From contig JBBUAP010000002.1 of assembly GCA_038058635.1 (NCBI GenBank), positions 20,948 through 84,947 of the forward strand: a stretch of 64,000 nt of DNA. Direction: 5' to 3'. The notes under the pieces were generated by a model. It saw only the letters and a program-made list of their open reading frames with translations. It searched no databases and was not told the DNA's origin. This document shows positions 9,111 through 64,000 of this stretch, one piece after another. Every line of letters begins with the position of its first letter. Within the stretch, counting starts at the first letter, position 1. Origin of the DNA: Patescibacteria group bacterium. GTDB taxonomy: Bacteria; Patescibacteriota; UBA1384; 2-12-FULL-50-11. The position numbers were made by a program, and so were the translations under genes.

Positions 9111-9150
9111 TCCTTACTTCAGACTTCAGCCTTTAGACTTTAGACTTCTG
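9111..9150. repeat. solo 3'-arm of the AGACTT-word element
   Basis: cttacttcagacttcagcctttagactttagacttctg, between tatD and the CvpA-CAP gene. Confidence 0.5.
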
Positions 9151-44800: not shown

Positions 44801-47800
44801 AAACTCTGCCCGTTGGAGGTAATGGTTTTGCCAGTGGCGACAGCAGTCATATTAACCGTTGATGTTCCCGGATTGACATTGACGGTGCCTGTTCCATTTA
44901 AGAATTTAGTACTTCCATAAATATTGAAGGTAGAAGTCTGTAAGTTAAGCTGATTCGAAGTCCCACCGTTACTTACCACATAAAGTGAGTCACCAGTTGA
45001 GGTCAGGGTGACCGTGCTTGAACCAAAGTTGTGCGTAGTATCTCCTTTATAAGCCGTCGACGAGTTGATACCCATATAACTGGCATTGATGGCATAATTT
45101 TGAGTATTAAATATGTATCCGGTCAAACCGGTTGTAGCTCCGGTACGAACACCATTAGTTGTAGTTAAATCGCCACCTAGCTGAAGGACAGAATTGTTAC
45201 CACTCGATCGATTATTTAAATCGAGTAACCAGGAGCCGTAATTTCCTCCGGCGACTGTGTTAGTAATTGAGGCCGAGTTATTGATAAATGCCATATTGGT
45301 ACTGCCAGTAATTGTGGTGGCGCTGGCGAATACAACTGATGAACCGGTCGTCGTCCTGTATAAATCGATATAATTCTGTCCTGCACCGGCTACCGTACCG
45401 CCATTGAAGGTGAGCGTCCCATTGTTAAGTCTAAAATCCGCACCAGTTAATGTAGTAGTAAATCCTGTATAGCCAATAGACAAGTTATAGAAGTCGTAAC
45501 CCGATACCGTGGTAATGGTGCCAGTTCCATTAGCCGTAACTGTCGAAGTGCCATAAACAAATTTCTCGCCTGTATCCGTATAATGTCGGCTGACTGTAAT
45601 AGTCGAGCTCCCCGCCGTGTAGCTAACTCCCGCGGTATTGGCCAGCGTAAAGTCTCTCGTTACAGTTAGGGCTAAGTTGTTGGCTGTTACGGCGCCGTTG
45701 GTAACAGTGAAATCGTTGGTGGCGGCGACAGCATTGCTGTAAGTCCAACCACCAGCCACACCATCAAAGGTTAGGTTGTAGAACGAACTTGCACCGGTCA
45801 TTGTCCCAGCTAAGGTTTTGCCCGTAGCAGTGGAAGTGAAGGTAGTGGTGTTTGATGCCGAGGTAAAGGTGCCAGCATTGTTGTAAGAGCCGCCGATCGA
45901 AAGAGCATTACCACCCATACTAAGGGTGCCGACTATATGTAGGTCTCCGGCCAATCCAGTGGTGACGGTTCCACCCGGAGTGAAGGTCTTACCAGTTGTA
46001 ATGTGGAGCGCTTTACCGGCCGTCACACTTAAGTTTCCTGTCGTCACCGTAAAGAGCATATCGGTAGCGTTCTGATCGATGTCGTAAAGATCTAGTCCCG
46101 TATTTGTTTGCGGTCCAGCGTTGTCGTGTCTAACTGCAACTTGGTCGATGTAAATGTCGACGCCGGTTTCAGTAACGGCATTAGAAAGAGTAACGGCATT
46201 ACCCTTACTGGCGGAAGTTAAGTAGATCGTGACGGTCTGTCCGGCCGTTGGGGTTATTGCCAAGTAAACGGTGTAGGCGGCGGTGGAGGCAGAACAGGTA
46301 GCGGTGGCGGCCGATCCACCGTTGACCCTAGCGGTGATGATGGCGGTTGAGCCATCGCACGGCCCACCGTTACCAGAGGTGCCGATGGTCGATTCGTTCG
46401 TTAAGTAGACGATACCCTGGATACTAATACTGGAAGAGAAGTGTAAGAAGCCATAAGTATCTGCTCCGCCGTCACCGGTATCGGAATCAGAAGCTTCACA
46501 GTCCGTCCAGCCAGTACAGGTCGAGCCGAAGAACGACCAGTAGTTCCCAGCCGCTGGAGCGCCGGTGGCGGTTTGGGTGACGGTGTACTCTGGGACGTTG
46601 TCGGATGCTTCGAGGAAAATCATATTGTCCCAGGTCTTGGCTGGAGCGCCGGTCCCGATCAATGACCCATGAACCTTTATGTATGTATCTGTTGCGCCAA
46701 CATTCTGGAAGTTGTCGAACTGACCATCATCCAAATTAGTTAGCGTTGCCCCGCTTTGCAGATCCAAGCCATTTGCCCCACTGGTTCCACCAAGATTACT
46801 AAATTTGTAGTACTGGGCGTCAATGGTTCCAGCGACATCGAAATGGTAGCCGCCAGTGGCGCCACGAGTCACAGTTGTCAGGTTAGTGGCGGTCGTTTGG
46901 CCTTTCATCTCTAAAGTCTTTCCGGACCCAACCGTAAAGATGTCACCGTCAGTCATCATCGTCATGGGTTTGATGGTTGAAGTGGAGTTGTCGGCGTCGT
47001 AAGCAACAAAAGTGTAAGTAGCATTCAAGGCATACGGGGTGGCACCGCAGTCAACGGTGAATTTAGTGTTAACAGCCCCAGTCGAGTCGGTAAACAATGT
47101 CCCGGTGGTTAAGTCGCCAACATCAGTACCGTTACGGTAGACATCCATCACTGCTTGAGAAGTCACACAGCTGGCTCCGACACCAGCGGTCTTGGTAACA
47201 AGACGGTAGGCGTACGGGCCGGCCGACAAATCAGCCGGAGCCGACAAGTCGTAGCTCAAATTAGTATCTTCGGTGCCGGTGCCAGAATATCCGTGAGCGG
47301 TCATGGACTTCTCCCACAAATTGTTGGCGTAGTTGAATTTGTCAGTACTCTCCACTTGTGGCGTTTCGGCTGTATCGGCCGGAATGGCATACTCGCCCCA
47401 GAGCTTGGTTGCGCCAGCCGAGGTGTCGTGCTTGCGAGAAACAATATATGCCCCAGCAACAGTTACCCCAGTCACTTCAGTAGAAGAAGAGAGAGTGGTG
47501 TTGTAGAGAGAAAGGGTGTGAGCGTTAGTTCCGGCAAAAATAATGTCCGCCGTAGTATTGGCAGTTGCGCCATAGACATCATTAATGATGACATTGCCGG
47601 TTGAGGCAGTATTGTCGCTAACATATAAACCATACGACTGACCGCCGCTCTGATTTCCGATTAATGTGTTGTTGTTAGAGATACTAAGACGAAAGCCCCA
47701 GCTGCCGTTACCCGTGGAAGTATTGGAACTTAATATATTATTACTGGAGCTGACATTCAGGAGAAAACCAGATGAAATATTGCCGGTGGCAGAGTTGCTC

Positions 47801-50800
47801 ATTAGGATATTGTTGGTGGAAGTAGTGATAATAAACCCATATAGACTGTTGCCAATAGCGGTATTAGATGTCAGGGAGTTATTTGAGCTAGAGTCGATAA
47901 GGAAACCGTAGTTAACATTGCCGGTGGAGGTATTAGATGTCAGGGTGTTATTGTTGGCGCTGGAGTCGATACGGAAACCGTAGGAGGCGTTGCCAGTGGC
48001 GGAATTGGAAGTCAGGGTGTTATTGGCGCTGGCGTTGAGATAAAAGCCAGCAGTAGTATTACCTATAGCCGTATTGCTCGTCAGGGTATTGCTATTGGAG
48101 CTGACCTGAAGGTAGAAGCCGTAGCTGGTATTACCCGAAGCGATATTGTTAGACAAGGTATTGCTGTTGGCACTGCCGTTGAGATTAAATCCATAGAGAG
48201 TGTTACCAGCTGCCGAGCTGTTAGTGATACCCTTAGCGTTAGCGGTGTTGTTGTTGAGGGAGGCGGACAGTCGAGCGCCACGGTGGCCACTTCGTAAGCG
48301 CGATCGGTCAATGGTCACACCCTCGCTGGCGTTGGCGCCGTTGACAGAGTCGAATGTTACCCCAAATTTTAAGCTAGCATTGCGGCCTAGATCACAGACA
48401 TCGGCGTAATTCATAACTGTTTCCGAACCAGCGTTGGCATGAATATAACTTTCGCCAGCCTCATCATTCGTTGCGGTACAGGCAACGCCGTCTTCGGCGG
48501 TGACATTGGCGTAGTCATAAATTTCAAAATTATCTCCAGGTCTAACTCCGTCAGAGATATCTACCGTATCTCCGGAAGTGAAACCGGAGAATACATCGGG
48601 GGATTCGATGACTTTCAGGAGATCGTCGGTACCGGTACAGGAGGCAGAGTCGTTAGCGGAATCGGTGATCTGGAAGTAGCCCTTGGTGCTGGTAAAGTCA
48701 CGCATATACGAACCAATCTTTTGGTTATCTGCAGTAATGGAGTCAGGGATACAGACAGCCATAATGCCGTTATTGTTGGAGAGAGTTTTACTAGCGCTGA
48801 CAACGGAAGCGGTTGAGGTATCGGCTCTAGTAATGGAATCATAAGTAGCTGTATCACACTGAGCATCGTTGACGGTTGTGGCTGTGATGGCGTAGATCTG
48901 CCCGACAGCCAGACCACTTGTTGCTCGAACATGATTACCGTTGAACTGACTACTGGTGAAGGTGGAATTTGCGCAGAGCTTTGTTTCCCGGTTGTCGTAG
49001 TCGGTTATGGCGGTGGAGGTAGTTTCCGTAAGTGAAATTGCGCCGGTGACATTAAGTTTTCCGGTGGAAGCGACTTCCACACCGGTGTCAGATGCTGTCG
49101 CAGAGGATTTTGGAATGAGTTTGAGAATACCGTTTTCGTTGATGGTGAGAGTTCCTTGACCGCTACCGGAGCTTGCGCCGACATCAACTATACAGTTAGC
49201 GCATTGAGTGGCAGTATCTTTGTTGACTTGAACGGTGATGGTACTGCCTTCCGCCAGACCGTCTTTTGTTTGTAAAGTACCCGTTTCATTAGCGACGATA
49301 GCGATGTCAATACCGCCGTAAACAAGTAGGTTGTCGCCGTTACCATTACCAACCGTCACTGTACCGTTACTAACAACTAAGGTGTCAGCCGCTGGCGTAC
49401 CGGCTGAAGTGTCAACCAACATCGGGTCTTGAATGGTCCAAGCCCCAGCGACCCCGTTAAAGATAACTTTGAAGAAGGCCGAAGTACCGTTCAAAGTTCC
49501 GGAGATGGTATTACCGGCGTCAGTAGCGTTGAAGGTAATCGTACCGCTTCTGGCGGTGAAAGTGCCGGAGTTAGAGTAATTATTTCCTATTGTTAGAGCG
49601 TAGTTAGAAGCTGTCACATCCAAAATGGCGCTGGCATGGGTGATGGTTAAGTTGTTGGTAACGACGGTGTCGCCCTCCAGAACGAAAGTGTCGGCGGCGT
49701 TAAGTTCCAGATCGTAATACGAACTGGTCATAGATTGAATTGTGGTATTGCCTCCAGCATTGGCGCCGGTGTAGTAGAACTTGGAGGTGCCACCGACCAG
49801 AGCGCCGGCTGGGGAAGCGAGGAGTTGGAACGGATCGCCGCCGGTCCCGGAAAGAGTCCATGTGCGGTTACCGGCATTGAGGGTGGTTGTCGCTCCAGCG
49901 GCATCACCTGATTTACCAACCCTTAGAATATCCGAAACAGTAACACCTCCCGTCCCACCAGTTTGGGTGGTAACGGTAAACGGTGAAGAAGCATGGGAGT
50001 TAGAGAATGTTAAATCGTAGAAAGTCCAGGCAGTTGAACCAGAAGTAGTTCCGAAGTTCTTGGCCGCTCCAATTCGTTGTTCGAATGTCCCACCGGTCAA
50101 TGATATTATCCCGGCCGTCCCCGCCACCGCCCCATTAACAGTCACATTCTGCGTGCCATTCAGGGTTCCTGCGGTCATGGTCAGGTCGTTAGTAGCAATA
50201 AGAGCATCTTGGGGCGTCCAGCCACCACCCGAGCCGTCAAAGATGATGTCATAGAAAGACTGAGCGTTGGAAGTGATGGTTTTACCAGTGGCGACGGCGG
50301 CATAGGTAACGGTAGAAGTCCCTGGGGTTAAGGTTATTGTGCTACTGGAGTTGACGAATTTGGTGTTGCCGTAAACAGTAACGGAAGAGGTTTGGAGATT
50401 AAGGGCGTAGGCCGTGGTGCCAGTGGCGGTTGGTAGAAGCGAGTCGGTAGTGGAAGTCAGCGAAACGGTACTTGAACCAAAATTGGCCGTCATAGCGCCG
50501 ACACGAGAAGCGGTGTCACCCAGCTGAAAGTAACTGGCGGTCAGACTGAAGTTTCCAGTATTGAAGATACTACCGGTAACTGCGTTAGCCGCAACAGGAA
50601 TAAAATATCCAGTGGTGGTGACATTGCCAGAGAGCTGAGTCGTTGAGCCGTTACCCGAAGTGTGAAAAGCATATAAGTTCCAAGAACCGTAATTTCCAGC
50701 TGGAATACTGACGGTGATTGCAGCGGCGTTGGCGTAGCTAGCTAGCTGTCTCGTTCCTGTCAGCGTAGTGGCGGAAGCAAAAGCAATTGGGGTATTGCTG

Positions 50801-53683: not shown

Positions 53684-53805
53684 ACTCTAAAACTCCCCCT
53701 CTCCCCTGTAAGTGGATAAATTCAAACCCTCCATGTATATTTACCATGCCTACTTTTCTCGGGGTCGTCAACTAAATTAACAGGTTCAAAAAAAGAGATA
53801 CAACC

Positions 53806-53834
53806 AATCTTCAAAGGCCAGGCCTTTGAAGATT
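53806..53834. repeat. REP-like perfect palindrome (type a), abutting the stop of RAYT-like gene 1
   Basis: aatcttcaaaggcc-a-ggcctttgaagatt, a 14-bp stem. Confidence 0.85.
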
Positions 53835-53835
53835 C

Positions 53836-54522
53836 TTAATCAAGAGTCAAATGCTGGATTACCTCGAGATCGTCCTGTGCTTTGGCGTAGTCTTCGATGA
53901 AAAATTGATAATTACGACTGGTAGATCGTAGATCCCTCTTATCTTTAGCGGCAAATAACCCAAGAGGAATCCCTGGGTCTAGCCAAGGATTTTCGCGTCG
54001 TTCTAAGTAGTTCGCATATGAACAGTAGGGATAGTCGCGAAGTTCGTCTAGGGAAACGCCAAGATCTAAGGGGTTTAAGTTAATATAGCGCGATAAATGT
54101 GCTAATTGCTCATCGGTTTTTACCAGCACCGCCTTATACCTTCCTTGGAATAAACTACCGACTCGTTCGTAGCGCTTATTGAAGTAGACGCAATATCGAG
54201 ATGATAAGGACTGCAAGAAATCTTTCATTGCAGTCATATTGCTTTGATGAACAAGAAGGTGGAAATGGTTTGGCATTAAAGCGAATGCTTCAAGTGTTAT
54301 TACATCACCGTAGTTTCGTCGAGAATAATAATCTCCGCTCGTCTTGAGCTGGTCTTGCTTGGCATCGTTGAGAATCGGCTGGGATAGGTACTCTCTCAGA
54401 TAATTCAAAAAGACTTTATAGTCCTGAGGAGAGGCGAATATCTCCCTTTTTTCAACACCCCGATTATAGACATGATAATGGCCGTGTTCGACATATGTCT
54501 TTCGTGAATTTTTCTGAGGCAT
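53836..54522 (-). CDS. REP-associated tyrosine transposase-like protein (IS200/IS605 TnpA-like HuH Y1 family, COG1943-type), copy 1
   Basis: HuH motif in MPNHFHLLVHQ. C-terminal helix GSLFQGRYKAVLV...LSRYINLNPLD with the conserved Tyr, comparable to HVDYIYINPVKHG of RAYTs. N-terminus GHYHVYNRGVEKREIF. Flanked on both sides by palindromes. Confidence 0.75.
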   Translation of the reverse strand: MPQKNSRKTYVEHGHYHVYNRGVEKREIFASPQDYKVFLNYLREYLSQPILNDAKQDQLKTSGDYYSRRNYGDVITLEAFALMPNHFHLLVHQSNMTAMKDFLQSLSSRYCVYFNKRYERVGSLFQGRYKAVLVKTDEQLAHLSRYINLNPLDLGVSLDELRDYPYCSYANYLERRENPWLDPGIPLGLFAAKDKRDLRSTSRNYQFFIEDYAKAQDDLEVIQHLTLD

Positions 54523-54545
54523 ATATCCATATTAGTCAGGATTCT

Positions 54546-54578
54546 CCAATCTTCAAAGGCCTGGCCTTTGAAGATTGG
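54546..54578. repeat. REP-like perfect palindrome (type a), 24 nt upstream of the RAYT-1 start and 5 nt after the PEBP stop
   Basis: ccaatcttcaaaggcc-t-ggcctttgaagattgg, a 16-bp stem. Confidence 0.85.
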
Positions 54579-54582
54579 GTTT

Positions 54583-55263
54583 TTACTTTTTTGCGCGGGT
54601 GTAGCTGGCGGTGATCTTGTATTTGGCGATTGAGTTGTTTTCGATAACTTTTTTGGCTTCGGTCAGGCCGACATCGGAAGTAATGGGCAGAGAGTCTTTT
54701 TCAATGAAATATAGAGCGAAGACATACTTGTGGGTTTCGCCTTCTGGTGGGCAAGGACCGCCGTAAGCAAAATTGCCGAATATATTGCGACCGATCGTGC
54801 CAGGAGGACGAATGCCTTGGGTAAATTTTGTTGTAGAGGCGGGAATATTCCAAACCATCATGTGAGCTCGGTAAGGGGAGTCGGCAAACTCTTTCTTGTC
54901 CAAGTCTTGATCTTCGACGATAAAAGCCAAGCTCTTGGCTTCCGCGGGGGTATCCTTGATAGTGAACTCGGGACTAAGATTGTCGCCATCACAGGTAAAC
55001 TGGGCGGGCAGTGTACCACCATTTTTGAAGGAAGGACTACCGAGTTTATTTCCCGTTTCGGAATCGGCTTCACGCTGATTATTCCACGCCATACCAGAGA
55101 AACCGATTATCACAATCAAAATCAGCATAGCGATGTTGTAGGGGTTTCGGAAAAAACGAACTATCCATATCTGAGGTCGTCTCGGTAACCAGGTCAAAAT
55201 GATGGCTATGTTAGTCAGCCTCGGCAGTCGTAATTTTGGAAATGGTACTTTCGGTAGTCGCAT
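54583..55263 (-). CDS. YbhB/YbcL-type phosphatidylethanolamine-binding protein (PEBP/RKIP) family, membrane-anchored
   Basis: GGTLPAQFTCDGDNLSPEF...SLAFIVEDQD...VWNIPA...GPCPPEGETHKYVFALYF is the bacterial PEBP signature. N-terminal TM. The likely start is an internal Met (MLILIVIIGF...). Confidence 0.7.
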   Translation of the reverse strand: MRLPKVPFPKLRLPRLTNIAIILTWLPRRPQIWIVRFFRNPYNIAMLILIVIIGFSGMAWNNQREADSETGNKLGSPSFKNGGTLPAQFTCDGDNLSPEFTIKDTPAEAKSLAFIVEDQDLDKKEFADSPYRAHMMVWNIPASTTKFTQGIRPPGTIGRNIFGNFAYGGPCPPEGETHKYVFALYFIEKDSLPITSDVGLTEAKKVIENNSIAKYKITASYTRAKK

Positions 55264-55317
55264 GTTCTTAAGTAACCTTAACCAGCACTAAAGCACAAGC
55301 TGTATGGTTGCCTCAGA

Positions 55318-55360
55318 AAGTACCACACCATAAAGGCCAGGCCTTTATGGTGTGGTACTT
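55318..55360. repeat. REP-like perfect palindrome (type b), overlapping the stop codon of RAYT-like gene 2
   Basis: aagtaccacaccataaaggcc-a-ggcctttatggtgtggtactt, a roughly 21-bp stem. Same AAAGGCC-N-GGCCTTT core as type a. Confidence 0.85.
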
Positions 55361-56028
55361 AATCAATTATTAAGTGCTTAATAATTTCCGATTGTTTATT
55401 GTCTTCACCCTCAACAAACTGTCGGTAGAACCTCTCTGGAGTGCGATTCGCATTACCCCGAAACAGATCTAGAACGATATTCTTGTTCAGCCACGATTGG
55501 TGACGCTTGCCTAAATAGCCGGGGTATGAGGAGTATCTGAAGTCTTCAAGAGAGGTCACCGATTTGTCTAAATCGATCGGGTTCAGGTGAATATATCTCG
55601 AAAGATGGACAAGTTGCTCATCTGTCTTAACTGTAACCGCCTTGTACCTACCCTGGAATAAACTCCCAACCCGATCGTAGCGCTTATTGAAATAGACGGT
55701 GTAGCGCGTGGAGAGAGACTGAAGAAACTCTTGCATCGCATCGATGTTTTCTTGTCGAATCAATAAATGAAAGTGATTTGGCATTAAGACATAAGCTCCA
55801 AGCTGGATGACGTTGGTATAGCATTTTATCTGATAGCGTTTCTCGTTTGTATGAATATCATTACTCGAAGTGTCTAGAATGGGTGGGGAAAGATATTCAC
55901 GGAGGTAAGTTAGAAAAACTTTATAGTCTTGCTCTGAGTCAAAAATATTTCTCTTCTCAACACCTCGGTTGTAGATATGGTAATAACCATGCTCTAAATA
56001 TGTTTTGCGAGAATTGCGCTGAGGCATA
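55359..56028 (-). CDS. REP-associated tyrosine transposase-like protein (HuH Y1 family), copy 2
   Basis: MPQRNSRKTYLEHGYYHIYNRGVEKRNIF...MPNHFHLLIRQ...GSLFQGRYKAVTV...LSRYIHLNPIDL. About 65% identical to copy 1. The track ORF extends to 56141 through the upstream palindrome. Start set at the Met homologous to copy 1. Confidence 0.75.
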
Positions 56029-56045
56029 ATTAAATGGTACACCAT

Positions 56046-56088
56046 ACCACCACACCATAAAGGCCAGGCCTTTATGGTGTGGTGGTAG
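56046..56088. repeat. REP-like perfect palindrome (type b), upstream of RAYT-like gene 2
   Basis: taccaccacaccataaaggcc-a-ggcctttatggtgtggtggta, a 21-bp stem. Confidence 0.85.
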
Positions 56089-56126
56089 TAGAGACAGATA
56101 GGGTCACCTCTGTTACTATTGGTTGA

Positions 56127-57302
56127 ATGGAAATCAAGCATCAGCTGTTACCCAAATCACGACTTCAATATGTTGTTGAGCTCACAGCCGAGGAAGTAGC
56201 AGTGCATTTTGAGCACGCTCTTGAGCTTCTATCCAAGTCAGTTAAGTTAGCTGGTTTCCGTCCTGGTAAAGCCCCGGCTAATTTAGTCAAAGAACAGATC
56301 GAACAGACTAAACTTCGTGAAGAGGCGTACAGCTTAGCGGTACAAGCCGCTTGGCGCGAAATAATAAAAGACATAAAAGAAATTCCCATTCAGGATCCGG
56401 AAGTTGAGTTAAGAGACTTTGAAGATAATAAAGAAGCGACGATTGTTTTTGCTTTTGATGTCCGGCCGGAGGTTAAAGTTGGCTCGTGGCAAAAAATCAA
56501 ACTCAGCAAAACCAAAGAGGAAGAGGTGAACGACGCCGAAGTCAATGAACTGATTGATTCGCTCCGTCGAGCTCACGCCAAAACAATTGCTAAACTCACT
56601 CCCGCCGCGTCGGGCGACAAAGTCCATGTCAATTTCACCGGAGCACTTGGTGGTGTACGTCAAGATAAACTATCAAGTAAGGAGTTCCCTTTAATAATTG
56701 GCCAAGCTAACACCATCCCGGGTTTTGATGAACAAGTCATCGGGCTGAAAAAAGGCGACACCAAAAAGTTTGCACTAACCTTCCCTAAAGACCATTTTGA
56801 TAAAACTCTAGCGGCCAAGTTAGTCGATTTCGAAGCCGAAGTGACCGAAGTATTTGATGTTATTTTGCCGGAACTAAACGACGAGTTTGCCAAGCGTTTT
56901 GGCCATACAAAAGCCGAACAATTAATTAAAGCCATCCGAGAGGATATTGGTAACCGAAAGAAAGACGAACAATTTATTAGTCAAAAAGCTCGCTGGTTGT
57001 CAGAGTTTGAAAAGCTAGTGAAATGCGACTTGCCGGAATCATTGATTGCAGCCGAAGTGGAGCGCTCACGCGAGGCCTGGCGAGCATTTTTACAAGAGCG
57101 ACATATAAATGAGGGCGAGTGGCTGAAGACTCGGGAGATTACATTAGAGCAGTTAGAAAAGGATTGGCATAAGGCCGCTGAGTCCTCTGTTAAAATTGGC
57201 TTAGGTCTGGCGGAAGTCGCCAAAGAGATGAAGAAAGAGATGAAGTCCAACGAGGAATTTCAGGCACTTCTCGACGACCTCGTCAAGAAAGCGATTCAGT
57301 AA
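56127..57302 (+). CDS. tig: trigger factor (short, 391 aa)
   Basis: N-terminal ribosome-binding signature AGFRPGKAP, a PPIase-like middle domain, and a C-terminal helical arm. Confidence 0.9.
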   Translation: MEIKHQLLPKSRLQYVVELTAEEVAVHFEHALELLSKSVKLAGFRPGKAPANLVKEQIEQTKLREEAYSLAVQAAWREIIKDIKEIPIQDPEVELRDFEDNKEATIVFAFDVRPEVKVGSWQKIKLSKTKEEEVNDAEVNELIDSLRRAHAKTIAKLTPAASGDKVHVNFTGALGGVRQDKLSSKEFPLIIGQANTIPGFDEQVIGLKKGDTKKFALTFPKDHFDKTLAAKLVDFEAEVTEVFDVILPELNDEFAKRFGHTKAEQLIKAIREDIGNRKKDEQFISQKARWLSEFEKLVKCDLPESLIAAEVERSREAWRAFLQERHINEGEWLKTREITLEQLEKDWHKAAESSVKIGLGLAEVAKEMKKEMKSNEEFQALLDDLVKKAIQ

Positions 57303-57324: not shown

Positions 57325-57591
57325 ATGAGCAGAGAAGCGACTAAATTACTGCGTTACCGAGCGATTTTTCGACCCGAACCAGAAGGCGGCTTTACCGTGA
57401 CGGTGCCGTCGTTACCCGGTTGCATTACCTATGGTGAAAATTTAATCGAGGCCAAAGTTATGGGTCAAGAAGCAATCGAGCTTTATCTGGAAGATTTACA
57501 ATCTCGCAATGAGTCATTGCCAAACGACAACGATGCCTACATGACTGATATCGAGGTAGTTAGTCCCGAAAAAGTTCCGGCGCATGCCTGA
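57325..57591 (+). CDS. hicB: HicB-like (UPF0150) antitoxin-fold protein, copy 1
   Basis: YRAIFRPEPEGGFTVTVPSLPGCITYGENLIEAKVMGQEAIELYLED matches the UPF0150/HicB N-domain consensus. ATGCCTGA overlap with the following hicA reading frame. Confidence 0.6.
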   Translation: MSREATKLLRYRAIFRPEPEGGFTVTVPSLPGCITYGENLIEAKVMGQEAIELYLEDLQSRNESLPNDNDAYMTDIEVVSPEKVPAHA

Positions 57592-57941
57592 TTCATTGAC
57601 ATCAAGCCAGGTGATTAAGTTGCTCAAGCAAAATGGTTTTCTAGAGCTTGCTTACAATCTCATCAGATAGCTACAAACGGCTAATTTTGGCTACAAAATG
57701 CGAATTAATCGTCGAGGTAGTTACGACTATCACTCCTCATAATTCATCATTTTTCGCTCAAAATTATCTCGTTTTCGCTTCAAGAAAAGATTGTAAACAA
57801 GCTCTACTGACTCGCCAAAAAGGTAGTCATCAAATTTTCTACAACTCTACCACTAAACGACGAGTCACCGTCCCGTTTCACCGTCGCGATCTACCCAAAG
57901 GCACGCTCAACGACATTCTCAAACAAGCGGGTCTAAAGTAA
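57583..57941 (+). pseudogene. hicA: hicA-like toxin gene disrupted by a roughly 140-150-bp insertion with frame change
   Basis: N-terminal part MPDSLTSSQVIKLLKQNGFLE (57583..57645) ends at a stop. The C-terminal HicA part LTRQKGSHQIFYN...[27 protein letters not shown] continues in another frame (57648..57941) after inserted sequence. Confidence 0.5.
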
Positions 57942-57982
57942 TTCCATTGACCCATTGTCAAGTTTGCTTTACAATTTTCACC

Positions 57983-58579
57983 ATGCCTAAAGAGATTCAA
58001 AATCAGATACTAGTGCCGATGGTCATTGAGAAAACCCAGTTTGGCGAACGGGCTTACGATATCTTTTCCCGTCTGCTGAAAGACCGGATTATTTTTGTCG
58101 GAGGTGGGATTGACGATCATGTCGCTAATTTAATTATGGCCCAGCTACTCTTTTTGGAATCAGAAAATTCCACCAAAGATATCCAAATGTATATTAATTC
58201 CCCCGGCGGTTCAGTTTCGGCTGGCTTGGCGATTTACGACACGATGAACCACATCAAGCCGGATATTTCGACAATTTGTATGGGAATGGCCGCTTCGATG
58301 GGGGCATTTTTGCTCGCTGGCGGTGCAGCCGGTAAGCGTTTTTCACTGCCGAACGCGCGGATGATGTTACATCAAGTCGCCGGTGGTATGGAAGGTCAAG
58401 CCAGTGACATTGAGATTGAAGCCAAGGAGATCGTCCGGATTAAAAAGCTGATGAACGAAATCTTGGCCAAAAACACCGGCCAAAAACTGACCAAAGTGGA
58501 ACACGACACCGATCGAAATCTCTGGATGTCGCCCGACGAAGCCAAGACCTACGGGTTGATTGATAAAGTGCTGAGTTAG
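57983..58579 (+). CDS. clpP: ATP-dependent Clp protease proteolytic subunit
   Basis: [41 protein letters not shown]...[11 protein letters not shown] (Ser)...MLHQVAGG (His)...catalytic triad context. Confidence 0.92.
58521..58575. repeat. direct repeat copy 1 (clpP 3' end)
   Basis: tctggatgtcgcccgacgaagccaagacctacgggttg... is repeated at 59070 (41/42 identical, then more diverged). Confidence 0.8.
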
Positions 58580-58628
58580 CACCTCTTCCATATATCGAAC
58601 CAAAGATTTCTGTTAGCATAAAGCCATA

Positions 58629-58835
58629 ATGAAGCTATCAATTACTCTTTTTAAGGACGAGGACGGGATTTTTATTGCCGAGTGTCCTTCAATTCCTGGT
58701 TGTATTAGCCAAGGCAATACCGAAACAGAGGCATTGCGTAATGTTCGAGAGGCCATTAAAGATTGCTTAGAAGTTCGAGCGGAGCTCGGTCTTCCCAGCA
58801 CAGTTGCGACTAGGCAAGTTGAAGTCAGTGTCTAA
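58629..58835 (+). CDS. hicB: HicB-like (UPF0150) antitoxin-fold protein, copy 2
   Basis: MKLSITLFKDEDGIFIAECPSIPGCISQGNTETEALRNVREAIKDCLE. TAATG overlap with hicA. Confidence 0.6.
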   Translation: MKLSITLFKDEDGIFIAECPSIPGCISQGNTETEALRNVREAIKDCLEVRAELGLPSTVATRQVEVSV

Positions 58836-59062
58836 TGCCTTCCGTTCCGGTTTTGAAACCCCGGCAAGTCGTCAGGGCGTTTGAGAATCTGGGTTGGGAA
58901 GTTGCGAGACAAAAAGGTAGCCACATCATTTTAGTTAAGGAAGGGCAGATCGCGACTCTGTCAGTGCCGAATCACTCCGAGGTTGCCCGAGGGACTTTGA
59001 GAAGTTTAATTAACAGAGCTGGATTGACCATCGACGAATTTCTGATGGCTATCAAAAAATAA
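58835..59062 (+). CDS. hicA: HicA-family mRNA interferase toxin (intact)
   Basis: VVRAFENLGWEVARQKGSHIILVKEGQIATLSVPNHSEVARGTLRSLINRAGL matches YcfA/HicA. Confidence 0.7.
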   Translation: MPSVPVLKPRQVVRAFENLGWEVARQKGSHIILVKEGQIATLSVPNHSEVARGTLRSLINRAGLTIDEFLMAIKK

Positions 59063-59069
59063 TAAGAAT

Positions 59070-59128
59070 TCTGGATGTCGCCTGACGAAGCCAAGACCTA
59101 CGGGTTGGTAGACAAAGTTTTTTCTAAA
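59070..59128. repeat. direct repeat copy 2: displaced duplicate of the clpP 3' end (would encode ...[22 protein letters not shown])
   Basis: tctggatgtcgcctgacgaagccaagacctacgggttggtagacaaagtt. Brackets the 0.49-kb hicBA-2 cassette. Confidence 0.8.
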
Positions 59129-59143
59129 TTATGGCTATAAAAA

Positions 59144-59461
59144 CTACAAACACCCGATCCCATACGCACAGCCAACAAGTAGAAGAATTAACCACGATAC
59201 CGGGACAAGTATAAGGTTAAGTATAGCCAGCCACTTGAACGATTTTTTGATCGTCGCAGCAATGCTAAAGGCCAATGTGAGTGGTAGCAGAATGCTCGAC
59301 ATAATCTTGAAATCGAAGGCTTCACCATATGGAAGAAACATTGATTTAAGCGAAGTTATAAAGTAACCGAGCACAAAAATGGTGCCCAAAATCGCATACC
59401 ACCTTGAATGGTCCGTCTTGGCTGATTCTTGAGGGGGTCGAGTACTATCTTGTGAATCCAT
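59144..59461 (-). CDS. small hypothetical membrane protein (3 TM)
   Basis: 105 aa. Confidence 0.3.
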   Translation of the reverse strand: MDSQDSTRPPQESAKTDHSRWYAILGTIFVLGYFITSLKSMFLPYGEAFDFKIMSSILLPLTLAFSIAATIKKSFKWLAILNLILVPVSWLILLLVGCAYGIGCL

Positions 59462-59469
59462 ACTTTGCT

Positions 59470-59560
59470 AAATAATAGCTTGCATTTATATAAATTATAT
59501 AATAACTGAGAAGTGGGCGAAACAGCCCCTTGACGACTCGCTTTATATCTAATAAACTTC
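59470..59560 (+). promoter_or_regulatory. AT-rich putative rRNA promoter region (TTGCAT ... TATAAT; TTGACG ... TAATAA)
   Basis: Hexamers are visible but with sub-optimal spacing. Assignment is tentative. Confidence 0.3.
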
Positions 59561-59881
59561 TACTAAGTTCTAAGTCCTTTCCGACCACGGGGCCGAAACG
59601 GAATTACAATTAGCTTATTAACAATTGACACAACCGTCAGTTGAGTGTTTTCTGCCCCCGCAGAATCATTCAAGCATTTGGCGGTTGCAAGAATGCCAGT
59701 TTACGAGAATGGTTATTCTTCGCTTCATGCGAAGAAGATGCACCAAGGGCGTAAGCCCCTGGAGCATTATTTAACTCGTACCCCTGCGCAAAGCGCAGAG
59801 CTGCTAGCCACTGGCTGGTGGCTTCTAGCTGAGTACAGGGTGCACGGAAGCTTTATGCTTCTATATATGAGAGTTTGATCA

Positions 59882-59913
<32 letters not shown>

Positions 59914-60210
59914 AACATGCAAGTCGAATGGGTTAGACCCATGGCGAACGGGTGAGTAATGCACAAGAACTTGCTCCGAAGTTGGGGATATCCCCTCGAA
60001 AGAGGGAGTAACACCCAATGGTCTCAGCCCCAGTTTAAGGAAGAGACTACCAATAATTTGGTTAGTCGTTGCTTTAAACTGGAGCTGAGTAAAAATTTAT
60101 TGCTTCGGAAGAGGCTTGTGTCCTATCAGCTAGTTGGTGAGGTAATGGCTTACCAAGGCGATGACGGGTAGTTGGTCTGAGAGGATGACCAGCCACAGTG
60201 GAACTGAGAT

Positions 60211-60951
60211 AAAATTTTGTCTCCATGGTAAAGAAATTTCCATGTAAAATTTGGCTAATAACGGTGAAACCCTACTTCATATCAGGTATACTGATATGAG
60301 TATGAGGGCAATACCGTGGGAAGTCGGATGCATAAGTTAGGTAGTGAAAAGTTAGCCTACATTGCGGGGTTTCTTGACGGCGATGGCTGTATTGCCATCA
60401 ATTATGAAAAACGAGAAACCTGCAAATTAGGCTATCGAGTTAGGGTGCGAGTGAGTTTTACCCAAATCTCTACTCGCAGGAAAGTGCTTGATAAACTGTT
60501 TTCCTGGATTAAGTCGGGAACAGTTGATGAATATGAGCACAATCATATGGCGGAGTATGTTATTCGCGATCAGCAGGTTGTGAATAGCCTGCTCAACGAA
60601 TTATTACCCTTTCTCATTGTTAAGAAGGAACATGCGAAATTAGCACTGAAAGTTCTGGAACTAAAACAGGAAAAATACAGTGTCAAATCGCTCAATGAAA
60701 TGCGGCAGTGCGCCATTTCATTGCGAAGTTTAAATCACTACCCCAAACGAATCCATCTTGACCCCGTAACGACTGAGGCTTAAGTGCCGAGACTTCGACA
60801 ATTCGTTGTCGGGGTAAGACGCCAACCCCTCCTCCATACTCAAATATGGAAAGGGTGAAGATATACACTTCTAGCGAAGTGGTTTCTTCACTCCACGGTA
60901 GTGGAGAGGGTGAAGATATAGTCTGCGCCACTAGTAATAGTGGGTAACGTG
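60211..60951 (+). mobile_element. 16S intron 1 (after about E. coli position 328), group-I-like (5' exon ends in U, intron ends in G)
   Basis: Exon sequence ...GGAACTGAGAT | ... | ACGGTCCACACTCCTACGGG. Contains a repeated gggtgaagatata motif downstream of its ORF. Confidence 0.75.
60316..60783 (+). CDS. LAGLIDADG homing endonuclease (single-motif, homodimer type), intron 1
   Basis: LAYIAGFLDGDGCI motif. 155 aa. Confidence 0.8.
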   Translation: MGSRMHKLGSEKLAYIAGFLDGDGCIAINYEKRETCKLGYRVRVRVSFTQISTRRKVLDKLFSWIKSGTVDEYEHNHMAEYVIRDQQVVNSLLNELLPFLIVKKEHAKLALKVLELKQEKYSVKSLNEMRQCAISLRSLNHYPKRIHLDPVTTEA

Positions 60952-61019
60952 ACGGTCCACACTCCTACGGGAGGCAGCAGTTGGGAATCGTCGGCAATGC
61001 CCGAAAGGGTGACCGCGCG

Positions 61020-61057
<38 letters not shown>

Positions 61058-61114
61058 TCTTTTATGAGGGATGATTATGACAGTACCTCAAGAATAAGGG
61101 GCTGCTAACTACGT

Positions 61115-62078
61115 GAAACTTGAAATAAAGTTTGGCGCGTAGAAACCTGGTAACAGGTTAGAGAAAATTCCACTATATGCTGGAACACTCTGGAAATGAA
61201 CAAATACTCGCCCACCTGGGCAGTGAAAATTTTGTTTAAACCCGCAAAGTCCACCGCTGGACAGCAATGGGTTCTGGAGCAATCAGCAGGGAAGAGCATC
61301 TCGCTTGAAAAGCGAGGGTAAACTCCCCCCAGAGACTACACGTGGAACCCGATAATGCTAGGATGGTGATATGTCGCTGTTAACACAGCTCGTATCATCG
61401 TTCGATGATGATATGTCGCCGCTTTGCGGCTCGTATCATCACCTCGAGCACTCGGTGATGATATAGTCCAAGCAAGAAGAATGACAGAAAGAGTGAAAGA
61501 GATATTGATTGGTGTAACCCTAGGTGACGGATATTTAACGTCTTTTAGTGGGAAGAGCCAAAAATCCAGCCTAGATATGAAAGTGGCTGAAGATAAATAT
61601 CAGTATCTAAATTGGCTCCGTCACGAGCTCGCAGAGCTAGGCGGATCCGGACTGACTAAAAGAAGTGATAATAATCAATTCCGGCTAGTCACCCAAAGAA
61701 ATTTGGAGATTGGTCGAATACGAACACTTTTCTATCCTAACGGAAAGAAATGTATTCCAAGTAACATCGACCAACTTCTAATCAGTCCGTTAACATTGGC
61801 GATATGGTATCAGGATGATGGTACGCTCGATTATCGAGATAAGTATCATTACAACGCCTTGTTTGCCACTCACCGTTTCTCGCATTCCGGTTGCGAATTA
61901 TTGACATCGGCTCTTCAAAAAAACTTCGGACTTGATGTTCGAGTTTGCCGATGCCAGATGCGAGGCAAAGTTAATTATAGACTTTATGTCGTGTCGAAAA
62001 GCATGGATCGTTTTCTTGGCCTAATTCGGCCATATATCCATCCTTGCTTTCAATATAAAATTCGTGATCTGAAAGCAA
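61115..62078 (+). mobile_element. 16S intron 2 at the S516-equivalent site (CGU|GCCAGCAG)
   Basis: ...GGGGCTGCTAACTACGT | ... | GCCAGCAGCAGCGGTAATAC. The 5' end of the intron carries repeated tcgtatcatc / gatgatat hairpin words. Confidence 0.75.
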
Positions 62079-62095
62079 GCCAGCAGCAGCGGTAA
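61481..62095 (+). CDS. LAGLIDADG homing endonuclease (double-motif), intron 2. The ORF runs into the downstream exon.
   Basis: ILIGVTLGDGYL and LAIWYQDDGTL motifs. The stop TAA lies inside the exon sequence GGTAATAC. The track ORF starts at 61424. Confidence 0.75.
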   Translation: MTERVKEILIGVTLGDGYLTSFSGKSQKSSLDMKVAEDKYQYLNWLRHELAELGGSGLTKRSDNNQFRLVTQRNLEIGRIRTLFYPNGKKCIPSNIDQLLISPLTLAIWYQDDGTLDYRDKYHYNALFATHRFSHSGCELLTSALQKNFGLDVRVCRCQMRGKVNYRLYVVSKSMDRFLGLIRPYIHPCFQYKIRDLKASQQQR

Positions 62096-62351
62096 TACGT
62101 AGGCCCCGAGCGTTATCCGGAATTATTGGGCGTAAAGTGCGCGTAGGTGTTTTTGTAAGTCGGTCGTTAAATCTCACAGCTCAACTGCGAGACCGCGAGC
62201 GATACTACAAGAATTGAGTTTTGCAGGGGCTAGCAGAATTTCTGGAGTAGGGGTGAAATCCGTTGATACCAGAAGGAATACCAATGGCGAAGGCAGCTAG
62301 CTGGGCAATAACTGACACTGAGAGCGCGAAAGCGTGGGGAGCAAACGGGAT

Positions 62352-63421
62352 CGATGGTATCTGGTCCCCCGGTACGGTGACGTATCGGTAAAAATCTGTC
62401 TGTCTGGGTGCGATTTTCGCAAGAAAATTAAAATCCAGAAGACTGTAGTTTGTGCGAGAGCACAGACACAGGCTATATGCTGGAATCTCTGGTGTACTTA
62501 AGGAGCAATCCAACAAGTGCTTCTGTCGCAAGACGGGAACCAGACAATCAGCAGGAAACCGTTACTGATATGATAAAAGTAATGGGATCCTCAGAGACTA
62601 CACGCCAGATGACTCACATGAACCAGAAACTAGCTATGCTGTTAGGATTTCTCTATACAGATGGCTGTGTTTCTCCGAAAGGGAAGAGTTGGCGAATCTA
62701 TTTTGCCGTAAAATCTCAAGAATTAGTCGACTTGTTTCGGGATTGCGTAGTTACAACTTTCGCAATCGATCCGAAACGAGTTCGAGTGAGAGTTAGAACT
62801 TCAGGCCTAACGGCCGCTGTAGTTGACTCGAAGTCTATCGGCACCTACCTAACGACACGATTCGGAACATTCCGAACCTTGAAGTTTGAAAATGGTGACT
62901 TACCGAAGACGAAATTGCCCGTATCCGCCCTGAAAAAGAGTGGCTACGTGGAGGACTTCTTGAGAGTCGCATTCAGCTGTGACGGAGGCGTAAGTCTTTA
63001 TCCAGCAATGCGAAACAGCAAAAACGGAAAAACCAAATGGTTGATTAGAACGGTTTTTATCTCTTGTGCCCATCCACAGATGCGATCGGATTATCTAGCT
63101 TTATTAAAAAGTCTGGGTATCTATGTTCGCAATGTAGCAACGGATGGCAAGCTTAAGATTGAGCGAGAACGAGATATTCGTCTCTTCGCTAAAAAAATCG
63201 GCTTCGTTGATGGAGTGAAAGCAACGCTAGACTCCAAGTTCTGGAGTGGATACGAGAAAAATGAAGTTCTACGGATCCTCATCAACTCGTACGGCCAACC
63301 AGCAACAATCTATCAACTACCCAAATTCAGTGAGTCAATGATATAGTCCGACCTCTGCAGCGATGCAGAGAGATGCGACAATTACCGCAAGTCGTGTCCA
63401 TCGAAAGATGTAACAATATTG
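62352..63421 (+). mobile_element. 16S intron 3 at the S788-equivalent site (GGAU|UAGAUACCC), group-I-like
   Basis: ...GGGGAGCAAACGGGAT | ... G | TAGATACCCCGGTAGTCC. 5' exon ends in U and the intron ends in G. Confidence 0.8.
62450..63346 (+). CDS. LAGLIDADG homing endonuclease (double-motif), intron 3
   Basis: LLGFLYTDGCV and FLRVAFSCDGGV motifs. The real start is probably an internal Met (about 62570, MIKVMGS...). Confidence 0.7.
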   Translation: MCESTDTGYMLESLVYLRSNPTSASVARREPDNQQETVTDMIKVMGSSETTRQMTHMNQKLAMLLGFLYTDGCVSPKGKSWRIYFAVKSQELVDLFRDCVVTTFAIDPKRVRVRVRTSGLTAAVVDSKSIGTYLTTRFGTFRTLKFENGDLPKTKLPVSALKKSGYVEDFLRVAFSCDGGVSLYPAMRNSKNGKTKWLIRTVFISCAHPQMRSDYLALLKSLGIYVRNVATDGKLKIERERDIRLFAKKIGFVDGVKATLDSKFWSGYEKNEVLRILINSYGQPATIYQLPKFSESMI

Positions 63422-63918
63422 TAGATACCCCGGTAGTCCACGCCCTAAACTATGTCTACTAGCGATAGGAAGAGTCGACCCTTTCTGTCGCGAAGCTAAC
63501 GCGTCAAGTAGACCGCCTGGGAAGTACGATCGCAAGATTAAAACTCAAATGAATTGGCGGGGGCTCGCACAAGTGGTGGAGCATGTGGTTTAATTCGACA
63601 GTAAGCGAAAACCTTATCCCAGATTTGACATCTAGCGAATCCCCAAGAAACTGGGGAGTGCCCGTAAGGGAGCGCTAAGACAGGTATTGCACGGTCGTCG
63701 TCAGTTCGTGGCGTGAGCTGTGAGGTTAAGTCCTTAAACGAACGAAACCCTTGTCCTATGTTGGATTTTCATAGGAGACTGCCCTGGTAACAGGGAGGAA
63801 GGTGGGGATGACGTCAGATCCGCGTGGTCTTTATGTCTGGGGCTACACACGTGCTACAATCCTATCGACAATGGGTCGCCAAGCCGCAAGGCGGAGCTAA
63901 TCCCATCAAAAGATAGGT

Positions 63919-63963
<45 letters not shown>

Positions 63964-64000
63964 ACTAGTAATCGTGGATCAGAACGCCACGGTGAATACG

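Follow-up and report, generated by a model that had tools for sequence, protein, structure and literature searches.

Why the last codons of a housekeeping protease gene should occur twice, on either side of a toxin–antitoxin pair, is the question raised by the clpP locus of this genome from an uncultivated member of the Berkelbacteria. Throughout, the window is the whole 64-kb stretch of DNA that was analysed, the two copies of the clpP end are referred to as T1 and T2, and the loci of relatives are denoted by L numbers. The reading we favour, with a probability of about 0.55, is that clpP and the rRNA promoter enclose a recombination hotspot of Berkelbacteria, in which small modules are swapped and stacked by a process of 'tail displacement'. 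The window cassette is one of several modules stacked at the clpP site.

Organisation of the clpP locus

The features of the locus, in order, are as follows.

56127 to 57302, plus strand: tig, encoding trigger factor (Pfam Trigger_N, FKBP_C and Trigger_C)
57325 to 57591, plus strand: hicB1, the intact antitoxin gene of an older pair, hicBA-1 (PF15919, 38.6 bits)
57584 to 57941, plus strand: hicA1, the disrupted toxin gene of that pair (HicA_toxin match to the 3' part only)
57983 to 58579, plus strand: clpP, 198 aa (PF00574, 279.9 bits; Berkelbacteria ClpP proteins 78–94% identical)
58521 to 58558, plus strand: T1 block A, the 38-nt repeat copy within functional clpP (37/38 to 59070–59107)
58559 to 58628, plus strand: new cassette-linked clpP end (last 7 codons, IDKVLS*) and a 49-nt spacer
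58629 to 58835, plus strand: hicB2, single-domain HicB-like antitoxin, 68 aa (PF15919, 28.4 bits)
58835 to 59062, plus strand: hicA2, HicA toxin, 75 aa (PF07927, 68.1 bits; G28-S29-H30 motif)
59063 to 59069, plus strand: right cassette junction, TAAGAAT, directly 5' of T2
59070 to 59140, plus strand: T2, the displaced former clpP 3' end (Pfam, nhmmer and collinearity with L091)
59144 to 59461, minus strand: ORF105, small predicted membrane protein, 105 aa, convergent with T2 and 3 nt away from it
59530 to 59558, plus strand: promoter of the rRNA operon, marking the conserved right edge of the variable interval (promoter scan)

The conserved upstream neighbour is tig, which is syntenic in L008–L017. 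Between tig and clpP lies the second, decayed hicBA pair that the initial annotation had reported, in which hicB1 is intact (86–91% identical to its orthologues in L008, L009 and L090) and hicA1 is split by a MITE-like insertion of about 161 nt at about 57644–57804. This insertion carries terminal inverted repeats of 17–19 nt and apparently duplicates a TA; it is 70% self-complementary, occurs once in the window and is missing from the hicA1 orthologues of L008 and L009. Repeat searches of the window revealed no duplication of the tig tail around hicBA-1. A promoter-like site precedes clpP at 57947–57975 (promoter scan), and the gene remains intact at 198 aa despite the repeat-flanked insert behind it. 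As had been noted, clpX is absent 3' of clpP; what comes next is the minus-strand membrane ORF of 105 aa, the rRNA promoter and the 16S gene, which starts at 59871 (Rfam SSU match).

Two copies of the clpP 3' end

The 3' end of clpP at 58521–58558 recurs at 59070–59107 with 37 of 38 positions identical, and a repeat search returns a single family here, pairing 58521–58569 with 59070–59118 (49 nt, 92%). The duplication described initially is therefore present, but its near-identical part is 38 nt long rather than 55, and the identity first given, 41/42, was slightly too high (39/42 when the 38 nt are extended). The core TCTGGATGTCGCCYGACGAAGCCAAGACCTACGGGTTG has exactly two occurrences in the 64 kb, and with 0 copies expected in 100 shuffles a chance repeat is out. 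Among direct repeats of at least 24 nt lying within 5 kb of each other, the clpP tail is the sole gene-end duplication in the whole window, so that gene-end duplication is not a general habit of this genome.

The two copies form a mosaic, in which 1 of the first 38 positions differs and then 10 of the next 21, identity past nucleotide 38 falling to 11/21 (Fisher p = 4.9e-5). T1 block A is also 37/38 identical to the clpP tail of L091. T2 comprises the block A copy at 59070–59107 and an old tail at 59108–59140, no longer ending in its own stop codon and prolonged by KLWL*. The suggestion that the second copy encodes a plausible ClpP C-terminus holds, since the translation of 59066–59140 matches Pfam CLP_protease positions 161–180 (E = 6.6e-5) and T2 matches an nhmmer profile of clpP tails at E = 5e-12. 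Neither T2 nor the spacer is a structured RNA, with fold z-scores of +0.29 and +0.47. For annotators, short clpP-like fragments 3' of clpP are best treated with caution, as footprints and not genes.

The genome is metagenome-derived and short repeats are open to mis-joining, which is what an assembly or chimeric-binning origin of the second copy would draw on. That origin is effectively refuted: five assemblies, independent of one another and built with different pipelines (ENA ERZ1292638, GCA_964366935.1 and three Logan run assemblies), agree at 100% over the 3.6-kb locus, the same architecture is found in other species, and the sequences of T1 and T2 differ and so do not represent a collapsed or duplicated read path. 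All contigs carrying exactly this ClpP, HicA or ORF105 have the same arrangement, and no conspecific empty allele was found among them.

The hicBA-2 cassette

Between the repeat copies lie, as first described, a HicB-like gene and an intact HicA gene, in the order hicB2 then hicA2, with a TAATG overlap at 58833–58837. The profile searches that had been proposed place both above the cut-off of 27, marginally in the case of HicB2 (28.4 bits) and clearly in that of HicA2 (68.1 bits, profile positions 2–58 of 58). HicB2 is a single-domain HicB of the UPF0150 type, which matches the PDB HicB structure 6g1c over residues 2–56 (E = 9.8e-6), and within its 68 aa there is no second domain, neither an RHH nor an HTH DNA-binding domain at the C-terminus. 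HicA2 matches the PDB entries 1whz (E = 1.3e-4), 9svk (1.4e-3) and 4p78_C (7e-3), and its sequence carries the conserved catalytic histidine in a G-S-H motif (G28-S29-H30).

The pair shares with the type II HicAB systems of Yersinia pestis (HicA3B3, 4p78) and Burkholderia pseudomallei (6g1c/6g1n) the GSH catalytic motif of HicA, the N-terminal HicB-like fold and an antitoxin gene that comes first and overlaps the toxin gene. It differs in that HicB2, at 68 aa, is without the C-terminal DNA-binding domain of canonical HicB. There is no terminator between clpP and hicBA, and co-transcription of hicBA-2 with clpP is therefore probable. The predicted toxin–antitoxin pair would behave as selfish or stabilising cargo.

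The HicA2 subfamily is 75–89% identical across many phyla, and hicB2 is 80–85% identical to the copies adjoining clpP in relatives. No recent donor of the window cassette was found among the sampled genomes, where the best matches reach a nucleotide identity of about 80%.

The end of clpP itself goes with this cassette. Its final 21 nt (58559–58579) match the clpP tail of L010, a carrier of the same cassette subtype, at 20 of 21 positions, against 11 of 21 for T2. In L010, L093, L168 and L181 the same 21 nt form an unbroken unit with the spacer and hicB, in L179 and L180 the unit sits behind tail fragments, and overall it is found downstream of clpP in five to seven other Berkelbacteria lineages. 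That 58559–58579 stays contiguous with the spacer and hicB in relatives links this clpP end to the cassette. On the right, the junction AGAAT followed by T(C/T)TGGAT also occurs in L171 and L181.

Empty sites, remnants and exchange in relatives

Comparison with related loci, which had been recommended as a check, yields equivalents of an empty site. T2 and ORF105 are collinear with the clpP tail and downstream ORF of L091 (69% over 346 nt, E = 4e-36), where the functional clpP tail abuts the ORF105 homologue with no hicBA between them, and in L008 clpP directly adjoins the rRNA promoter. Together with the cassette-linked new tail, these arrangements support what was first proposed, namely that an insertion at the clpP 3' end restored the end of the gene. 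Duplicated tails without a cassette, which had been named as contrary evidence, were searched for, and tails were found duplicated only around cargo and never empty.

ORF105 is itself an older module of the same hotspot. Its homologue in L091 (48.6% amino acid identity over 105 residues) directly follows functional clpP and is in turn followed by another clpP-tail remnant, and the ORF is absent from L008, L009 and L010. The L091 homologue, detected by tblastn, is the only one found, and a word-indexed protein database gave none. The rRNA promoter beyond it is homologous in L008, L009, L010, L093 and L168, and in L008 and L012 the clpP stop codon directly abuts it.

Additional clpP-tail remnants number two in L093 and one each in L095, L091, L180, L171 and L181, while L179 has one besides a clpP end at the contig edge, plus an unrecognisable stretch after hicA. 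The profile search with nhmmer detects those in L093 (two), L095, L179, L171, L091, L181 and the window, and every one of them is on the plus strand. All remnants lie in clpP orientation between clpP and the rRNA promoter and bracket different cargo, and hicBA occurs in at least four different downstream backgrounds. One 140-nt module, that of L090 and L095, has no Rfam match even at E = 1. The left boundaries of remnants fall at codons −33, −21, −17/−16, −13, −11 and −8 from the clpP end, and the switch points in the window and L168, together with the L091 remnant boundary, at codons −9 to −7. The repeats flank cargo and the gene is regenerated, but the label attL/attR-like need not imply site-specific recombination, and the boundaries of tail remnants differ between events.

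Two comparisons capture exchange more directly. L091 and L168, from the same aquifer well, show 1 difference over 572 positions of clpP and 6 over the 25 that end it (p = 2e-8), after which their downstream sequences are unrelated, with the ORF105 homologue in L091 and hicBA in L168; they are two haplotypes in one population with a breakpoint in the clpP tail. L168 and L181 have cassettes that are 96% identical and clpP bodies that are 78% identical (p = 5e-15), with breakpoints in the clpP tail on the left and inside hicA on the right, positions which indicate homologous exchange, and this demonstrates that the cassette was exchanged recently between species.

The window, L171 and L181 have one and the same hicA–T2 junction. 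The T2 copies of L171 and L181 are heavily decayed and share derived changes, and are therefore old, whereas that of the window is pristine at the same junction. The motif TYTGGAT is kept at the start of the old copies and could have served as microhomology. Block A is 36–37/38 identical between the window species and the species of L091 and L168, against only 82% for clpP overall, although on a rough estimate the excess over what conserved amino acids impose is marginal (about p = 0.04).

Outside Berkelbacteria, the clpP tail is duplicated in 1 of 101 clpP loci. This one, the distant CPR locus L148, has a hicBA of another family behind clpP, with a 56-nt tail repeat at 94.6% that is likewise in clpP orientation. 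No empty-site partner for it was found among L152, L153 and L025, which are of a different species (90% clpP) and have unrelated flanks.

Search for a recombinase

In agreement with the statement that no integrase lies nearby, the search of window ORFs with 130 aa or more gave no integrase or recombinase domain, and inspection of roughly 25 Berkelbacteria loci gave no integrase either. Transposase-like genes are limited to a pair of IS200-like Y1_Tnp genes 2.4–4.7 kb upstream. They were rejected as agents: no hairpin ends of their kind and no inverted repeat of at least 14 nt are seen in the cassette, and the copy adjoining tig is syntenic in L009. A phage-borne attP was likewise rejected after a degenerate clpP-tail pattern gave 0 matches in viral contigs, in which HicA had only one distant match (58%). 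The circular-excision junction predicted for the cassette is hicA-AGAAT-blockA-ATTGATAAAGTGCTGAGTTAG-spacer, the predicted excision/attP junction reads '…GCTATCAAAAAATAATAAGAATTCTGGATGTCGCCYGACGAAGCCAAGACCTACGGGTTGATTGATAAAGTGCTGAGTTAGCACCTC', and the predicted empty site is the clpP body plus '…ACCTACGGGTTGGTAGACAAAGTTTTTTCT'.

How the modules may have entered

In the account we favour, the ancestor would have had clpP running into the minus-strand ORF105, as L091 has now, and would have received DNA of a related cell carrying a clpP end, spacer, hicB and hicA, uptake of DNA presumably preceding recombination. The left joint would have formed by homology inside the conserved clpP 3' region, with the switch at 58558/58559, and the right joint, through short homology or microhomology, possibly with a tail remnant that already followed hicA in the donors (…AGAAT|TYTGGAT…), at the Trp codon that stands 20 codons before the clpP end. 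The outcome would be a functional clpP with the donor's last 7 codons, followed by hicBA, the orphaned but intact resident tail T2 and ORF105. A pristine T2 behind an old junction, as in the window, would follow from a new joint at the short retained TYTGGAT homology. Donor-type sequence that starts inside the anchor gene and runs into heterologous cargo is seen at 58558/9 in the window, in L091/L168 and in L168/L181. The structure, the foreign new tail, the empty-site equivalents, the recurrence of the pattern and the inter-species exchange are observed directly; that recombination of the RecA type was at work, anchored in homology and completed by an illegitimate or short-homology second joint, as in homology-facilitated illegitimate recombination (HFIR), rather than a dedicated integrase, is the mechanism we consider slightly better than an even bet. 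The window has no competence or recA genes.

The strongest competitor, which we hold to be somewhat unlikely, is a decayed or trans-mobilised site-specific integrative element resembling a CIME, for which an integrase of the tyrosine or serine type, encoded away from the locus (in the genome, on a phage or on an ICE), would use the clpP 3' end as attB and a clpP-tail copy of the element as attP, leaving T1 as attL and T2 as attR and building tandem arrays by successive integrations. Direct repeats around cargo and a regenerated gene end are what it predicts, and an arrangement with the functional tail proximal and remnants distal is that of ICE/IME/CIME accretion (PMC5704250) and of ssrA islands (PMC3146451). 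It would also predict two features that count against tail displacement: the clustering of switch points at codons −9 to −7 (window, L168, L091) and the hicA–T2 junction common to the window, L171 and L181. The near-identical block A resembles an element-borne att core, and the hicBA of another family behind clpP in L148 hints at target specificity. Such an element is nevertheless hard to square with the lack of an integrase in the 64 kb and in the roughly 25 Berkelbacteria loci, with modules of only 0.14–1.6 kb, with remnant left boundaries that range from −33 to −8, with a clpP-tail pattern that is found in no viral contig, and with the single duplicated tail among 101 clpP loci outside Berkelbacteria.

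Quite unlikely, in our estimation, is one ancient insertion of hicBA with T2 that was inherited vertically and lost repeatedly by T1 × T2 recombination, the near-identity of block A then reflecting gene conversion from T1 and not recency. The cassette is about 20% diverged from every sampled relative, as clpP itself is; the hicA–T2 junction is common to three lineages, with T2 heavily decayed in L171 and L181; the right part of T2 in the window has no stop codon; and deletion between direct repeats would yield an allele like that of L091. Several losses would nevertheless be needed, since L008, L009, L090 and L091, which ClpP and Tig identity place closer to the window, are without hicBA-2, and neither the at least four downstream backgrounds of hicBA nor the recent transfer between the species of L168 and L181 fits a single event, while conversion of a 38-nt tract without homology on its left flank would be inefficient.

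Relation to known systems

The closest parallels to tail displacement are the 3'-end displacement arrays of rhs, cdiA and T6SS effector–immunity loci, for which PMC5361080 proposes HFIR (citing Jackson 2009 and Poole 2011, PMC3150448), a process that is rare in experiments (PMC5361080, PMC3240628). In both, the homology anchor is a conserved 5' gene body, the incoming segment brings a new 3' end and cargo, the old 3' end is pushed downstream and orphaned in the same orientation, and repeated events yield strings of orphans with no integrase. Unlike those loci, the anchor here is a housekeeping protease gene in a CPR bacterium, the new and old clpP ends have the same function with no diversification of a toxin tip, the displaced pieces are just 8–33 codons long, and the cargo has nothing to do with the anchor gene, being a toxin–antitoxin pair, an Xre-type regulator, an RNA-like module or small membrane ORFs.

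Tandem accretion of ICEs, IMEs and CIMEs at the 3' ends of conserved genes, for example of ICESt1/ICESt3 at fda (PMC5704250), and the ssrA-targeting islands of Dehalococcoides (PMC3146451) likewise involve insertion into a conserved gene end that is regenerated, direct repeats of that end around the cargo and multi-repeat arrays, and integrase-less derivatives (CIMEs) exist. The present modules differ from ICEs, IMEs and CIMEs in that no integrase was found, in being 10–100 times smaller and in having repeat boundaries that are not constant. In the IME review, which does not cover every target that is known, clpP is not named.

Implications for gene gain in CPR bacteria

Bacteria of the CPR have tiny genomes with few recognised mobile elements, and the ways in which they acquire accessory genes are poorly understood. 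This locus offers a concrete route, open to checking from sequence alone, in which modules enter at a conserved gene end near the rRNA operon together with a replacement for that end, and the orphaned ends leave a trail by which events can be ordered in time. The two haplotypes of L091 and L168, and a cassette 96% identical across species whose clpP is 78% identical, show that the process is ongoing.

A bolder and rather doubtful reading is that the conserved last ~60 nt of clpP are a dedicated CPR landing pad for very small integrase-less cassettes that carry their own clpP end, built on homology to a housekeeping gene end and not, as in an integron, on attC and IntI. That these would bring in toxin–antitoxin pairs, an Xre-type regulator and a structured RNA as well as small membrane proteins, spreading between species and forming arrays, is speculative to the same degree. 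Were it true, the presence of hicBA of two unrelated subfamilies behind clpP in two distant CPR lineages would reflect real targeting or, alternatively, a functional coupling of HicB turnover to ClpP. If the process proves to be integrase-free, "C-terminal displacement" would reach beyond polymorphic toxin loci and take in housekeeping genes as well.

A duplicated clpP end around a hicBA cassette

ClpP in this window is 78–94% identical to homologues in MAGs labelled Berkelbacteria, and the host is a Berkelbacteria-type CPR bacterium. The locus runs tig, hicB1, a disrupted hicA1, clpP, hicB2, hicA2, T2, ORF105 (-), rRNA promoter and 16S, where T2 is a second, displaced copy of the clpP tail, T1 the copy inside functional clpP, and ORF105 a small predicted membrane-protein ORF. 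The central features are as follows.

57983-58579, clpP (PF00574, 280 bits)
58629-58835, hicB2, between the repeat copies (PF15919, 28.4 bits)
58835-59062, hicA2, between the repeat copies (PF07927, 68.1 bits)
59066-59140, T2
59530, rRNA promoter
from 59871, 16S gene with LAGLIDADG and group I insertions

The terminal part of clpP is present again 549 nt further downstream, and a repeat search aligned 58521-58569 with 59070-59118 at 92% over 49 nt. The window has exactly two copies of the 38-nt core (block A), against 0 expected from shuffled sequences. T1 and T2 differ at 1/38 positions and then at 10/21 immediately after (Fisher p = 4.9e-5); the two copies thus form a mosaic, not an evenly diverged duplicate, and the initial annotation's 41/42 was slightly generous. 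In-frame translation of T2 is still recognised as a CLP_protease C-terminus (E = 6.6e-5), and its nucleotides match a clpP-tail profile (nhmmer, E = 5e-12), in line with the proposed coding potential of the second copy. Assembly duplication, the artefact considered in the initial annotation, is ruled out as its source because the region is 100% identical across five independent assemblies.

The profile matches bear out the hicBA module described between the repeats, with its TAATG overlap. HicB2 and HicA2 are each similar to solved HicB and HicA chains, the usual HicB DNA-binding domain is absent from HicB2, and toxin–antitoxin activity is predicted solely from family membership. The pair between tig and clpP, annotated as decayed, is so only in part: hicA1 (57584-57941) is broken at about 57644-57804 by a ~161-nt MITE-like element that has 17–19-nt inverted repeats at its ends (TAGAGCTTGCTTACAATCT / AGATTGTAAACAAGCTCTA), apparently duplicated its TA target and is 70% self-complementary along its length, while hicB1 is intact, an orphan antitoxin left beside it. 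The element has one copy in the window and is missing from the hicA1 orthologues of two relatives, L008 and L009.

Immediately upstream of tig (53804-56141), a PEBP gene lies between two IS200-like Y1_Tnp paralogues (53836-54522 and 55359-56141, both (-)). Palindromic hairpins of ~31–35 nt (at 53804, 54546, 55323 and 56050) enclose each of the two, which resemble REP/RAYT-like or IS200-like units, and L009 shares the second pair's hairpin. The 16S gene (59871-64000), still incomplete at the window end, is split by several insertions, namely LAGLIDADG ORFs (60316-60783, 61424-62095, 62450-63346) and called group I introns (61105-61479, 62392-63370); their content varies among otherwise identical assemblies (155-aa ORF vs 151 aa). 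Elsewhere, a giant ORF of 4647 aa (38875-52818, (-)) with NosD/beta-helix repeats carries a ~6.2 kb internal duplication, with its 72-nt repeat families at 41456-41668 and 47810-48022, and a short CTTCAGACTTCAG-type repeat occurs three times between genes, ~2 kb apart (9111-9140, 11358-11387, 13396-13425).

Empty and filled sites in relatives

The comparison with relatives found empty sites in L008, L088 and L089 (ClpP 94%), where the rRNA promoter directly follows the clpP stop codon and the whole of window 58580-59526 is missing. In several Berkelbacteria (L008 4595-4610; L012 4598-4612) the clpP stop touches or overlaps the rRNA operon promoter at its -35 box CCCTTGACG, so that insertions behind clpP part the gene from this promoter. 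In L091 (ClpP 90%) the functional tail, ending TYGLVDKVLG-stop, runs directly into an ORF105 homologue (ORF105h, (-)). Window 59066-59411 (T2 and ORF105) aligns with this arrangement at 69% identity (E = 4e-36); T2 is therefore the leftover of a clpP end that formerly abutted ORF105.

Homologues of hicB2/hicA2 (80–88% aa) lie directly after clpP in L093, L172-176, L168-170 and L181 (hicB alone in L010), in L179 and L180 behind fragments of the clpP tail, and at a contig edge that cuts the left flank in L171. In all of these carriers, L171 excepted, hicB is contiguous with the spacer and the final ~21 nt of clpP, which come in two cassette-linked types. Window 58559-58579 is identical to L010 at 20/21 positions and the preceding 38 nt at just 29/38; the clpP end in present use arrived with the cassette.

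The clpP genes of L091 and L168, from the same aquifer well, differ at 1/572 positions and then at 6/25 at the end (p = 2e-8), past which their content is unrelated (ORF105h and hicBA, respectively). Between L168 and L181, clpP bodies are 78% and the cassette 96% identical (p = 5e-15), the latter stretch running from the clpP tail to mid-hicA. This is a recent inter-species exchange, and its right end inside hicA shows that it was driven by homology. Recombination at the clpP tail is ongoing, with breakpoints in the tail itself.

Serial tail remnants

Further remnants, sought with the clpP-tail profile and a peptide-pattern scan, all lie in clpP orientation between clpP and the rRNA promoter, an interval in which the pattern is serial.

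Arrangements behind clpP in relatives
L093: clpP, hicBA, remnant, ORF109 (-), Xre-like gene, L009-type remnant, Cys-rich ORF70, promoter
L095: clpP, 140-nt structured module, remnant SPTEALDYGIVDKILD-stop, promoter
L091: ORF105h, then GLIDKVL-stop remnant
L179: tail, ORF197 (-), tail fragment, hicBA, decayed stretch, promoter
L180: 33-codon clpP fragment before hicBA; HicB-like gene (-) upstream
L171, L181: after hicA, AGAAT/TYTGGAT junction as in the window, then heavily decayed T2

The decayed T2 copies of L171 and L181 have derived changes in common. Left boundaries of remnants, in codons counted back from the clpP end, fall at -33, -21, -17/-16, -13, -11 and -8. The ~140-nt module, immediately 3' of clpP in L095 (4077-4216, with clpP-tail copies on both sides) and L090 (3878-4000), folds into a pair of strong hairpins (MFE z = -5.5 and -3.7) with compensatory changes between the two species, and matches nothing in Rfam, even at E = 1; it is possibly a new small RNA.

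Outside Berkelbacteria, 1/101 clpP loci has a duplicated tail. This locus, L148 82-1202 from a distant CPR bacterium (ClpP 68%), comprises clpP, hicB, hicA and, once more, the final ~80 nt of clpP, the repeat around hicBA being 56 nt at 94.6% identity. Its hicB (88 aa) is HicB1-like and its hicBA of another subfamily than hicBA-2, and the duplication is independent.

Origin of the displaced tail

The window structure is best read as tail displacement, with a new clpP end in and the resident end out. The proposed insertion at the clpP 3' end with regeneration of the gene end is upheld by the L010-like new tail and the L091-like displaced T2 and ORF105. An incoming segment (clpP end, spacer, hicBA) would have replaced the extreme 3' end of resident clpP, thereby shifting that end and ORF105 downstream. 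Crossing an L168-like haplotype (clpP, cassette tail, hicBA, old remnant) with one like L091 (clpP, own tail, ORF105), with the joint at the TYTGGAT that old remnants retain at their start, would yield exactly this structure and a pristine T2 identical to resident clpP over its first 38 nt. The geometry is like the 'C-terminal displacement' proposed for rhs, cdi and T6SS effector–immunity arrays and attributed to homology-facilitated illegitimate recombination (PMC5361080).

On this sequence evidence we favour recombination that was anchored by homology and closed on the right by a short-homology or illegitimate joint, because breakpoints sit where clpP homology ends, homologous exchange of the cassette from one species to another is directly visible, remnant boundaries are variable, the modules are tiny and heterogeneous, and, as the initial annotation had remarked of integrases, no tyrosine/serine recombinase domain was found among ORFs of at least 130 aa across the 64-kb window. 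The last point and the variable boundaries also count against the main rival, a trans-acting site-specific integrase and accretion of the kind reported for ICE/IME/CIME (PMC5704250) and ssrA islands (PMC3146451), although such an enzyme would suit the constant hicA–T2 junction, the fact that two switch points and one remnant boundary cluster at codons -9 to -7, the highly similar block A of two species and the independent L148 case. An ancient insertion with block A kept identical by gene conversion would require several losses and fits poorly with hicBA in four different downstream backgrounds.

Insertion at the 3' end of a gene with that end regenerated is already well known, and so are direct repeats and strings of displaced ends. 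The new elements are clpP beside an rRNA operon as the target, CPR as the host group, the integrase-less and very small modules, and the clear evidence at both population and inter-species level.
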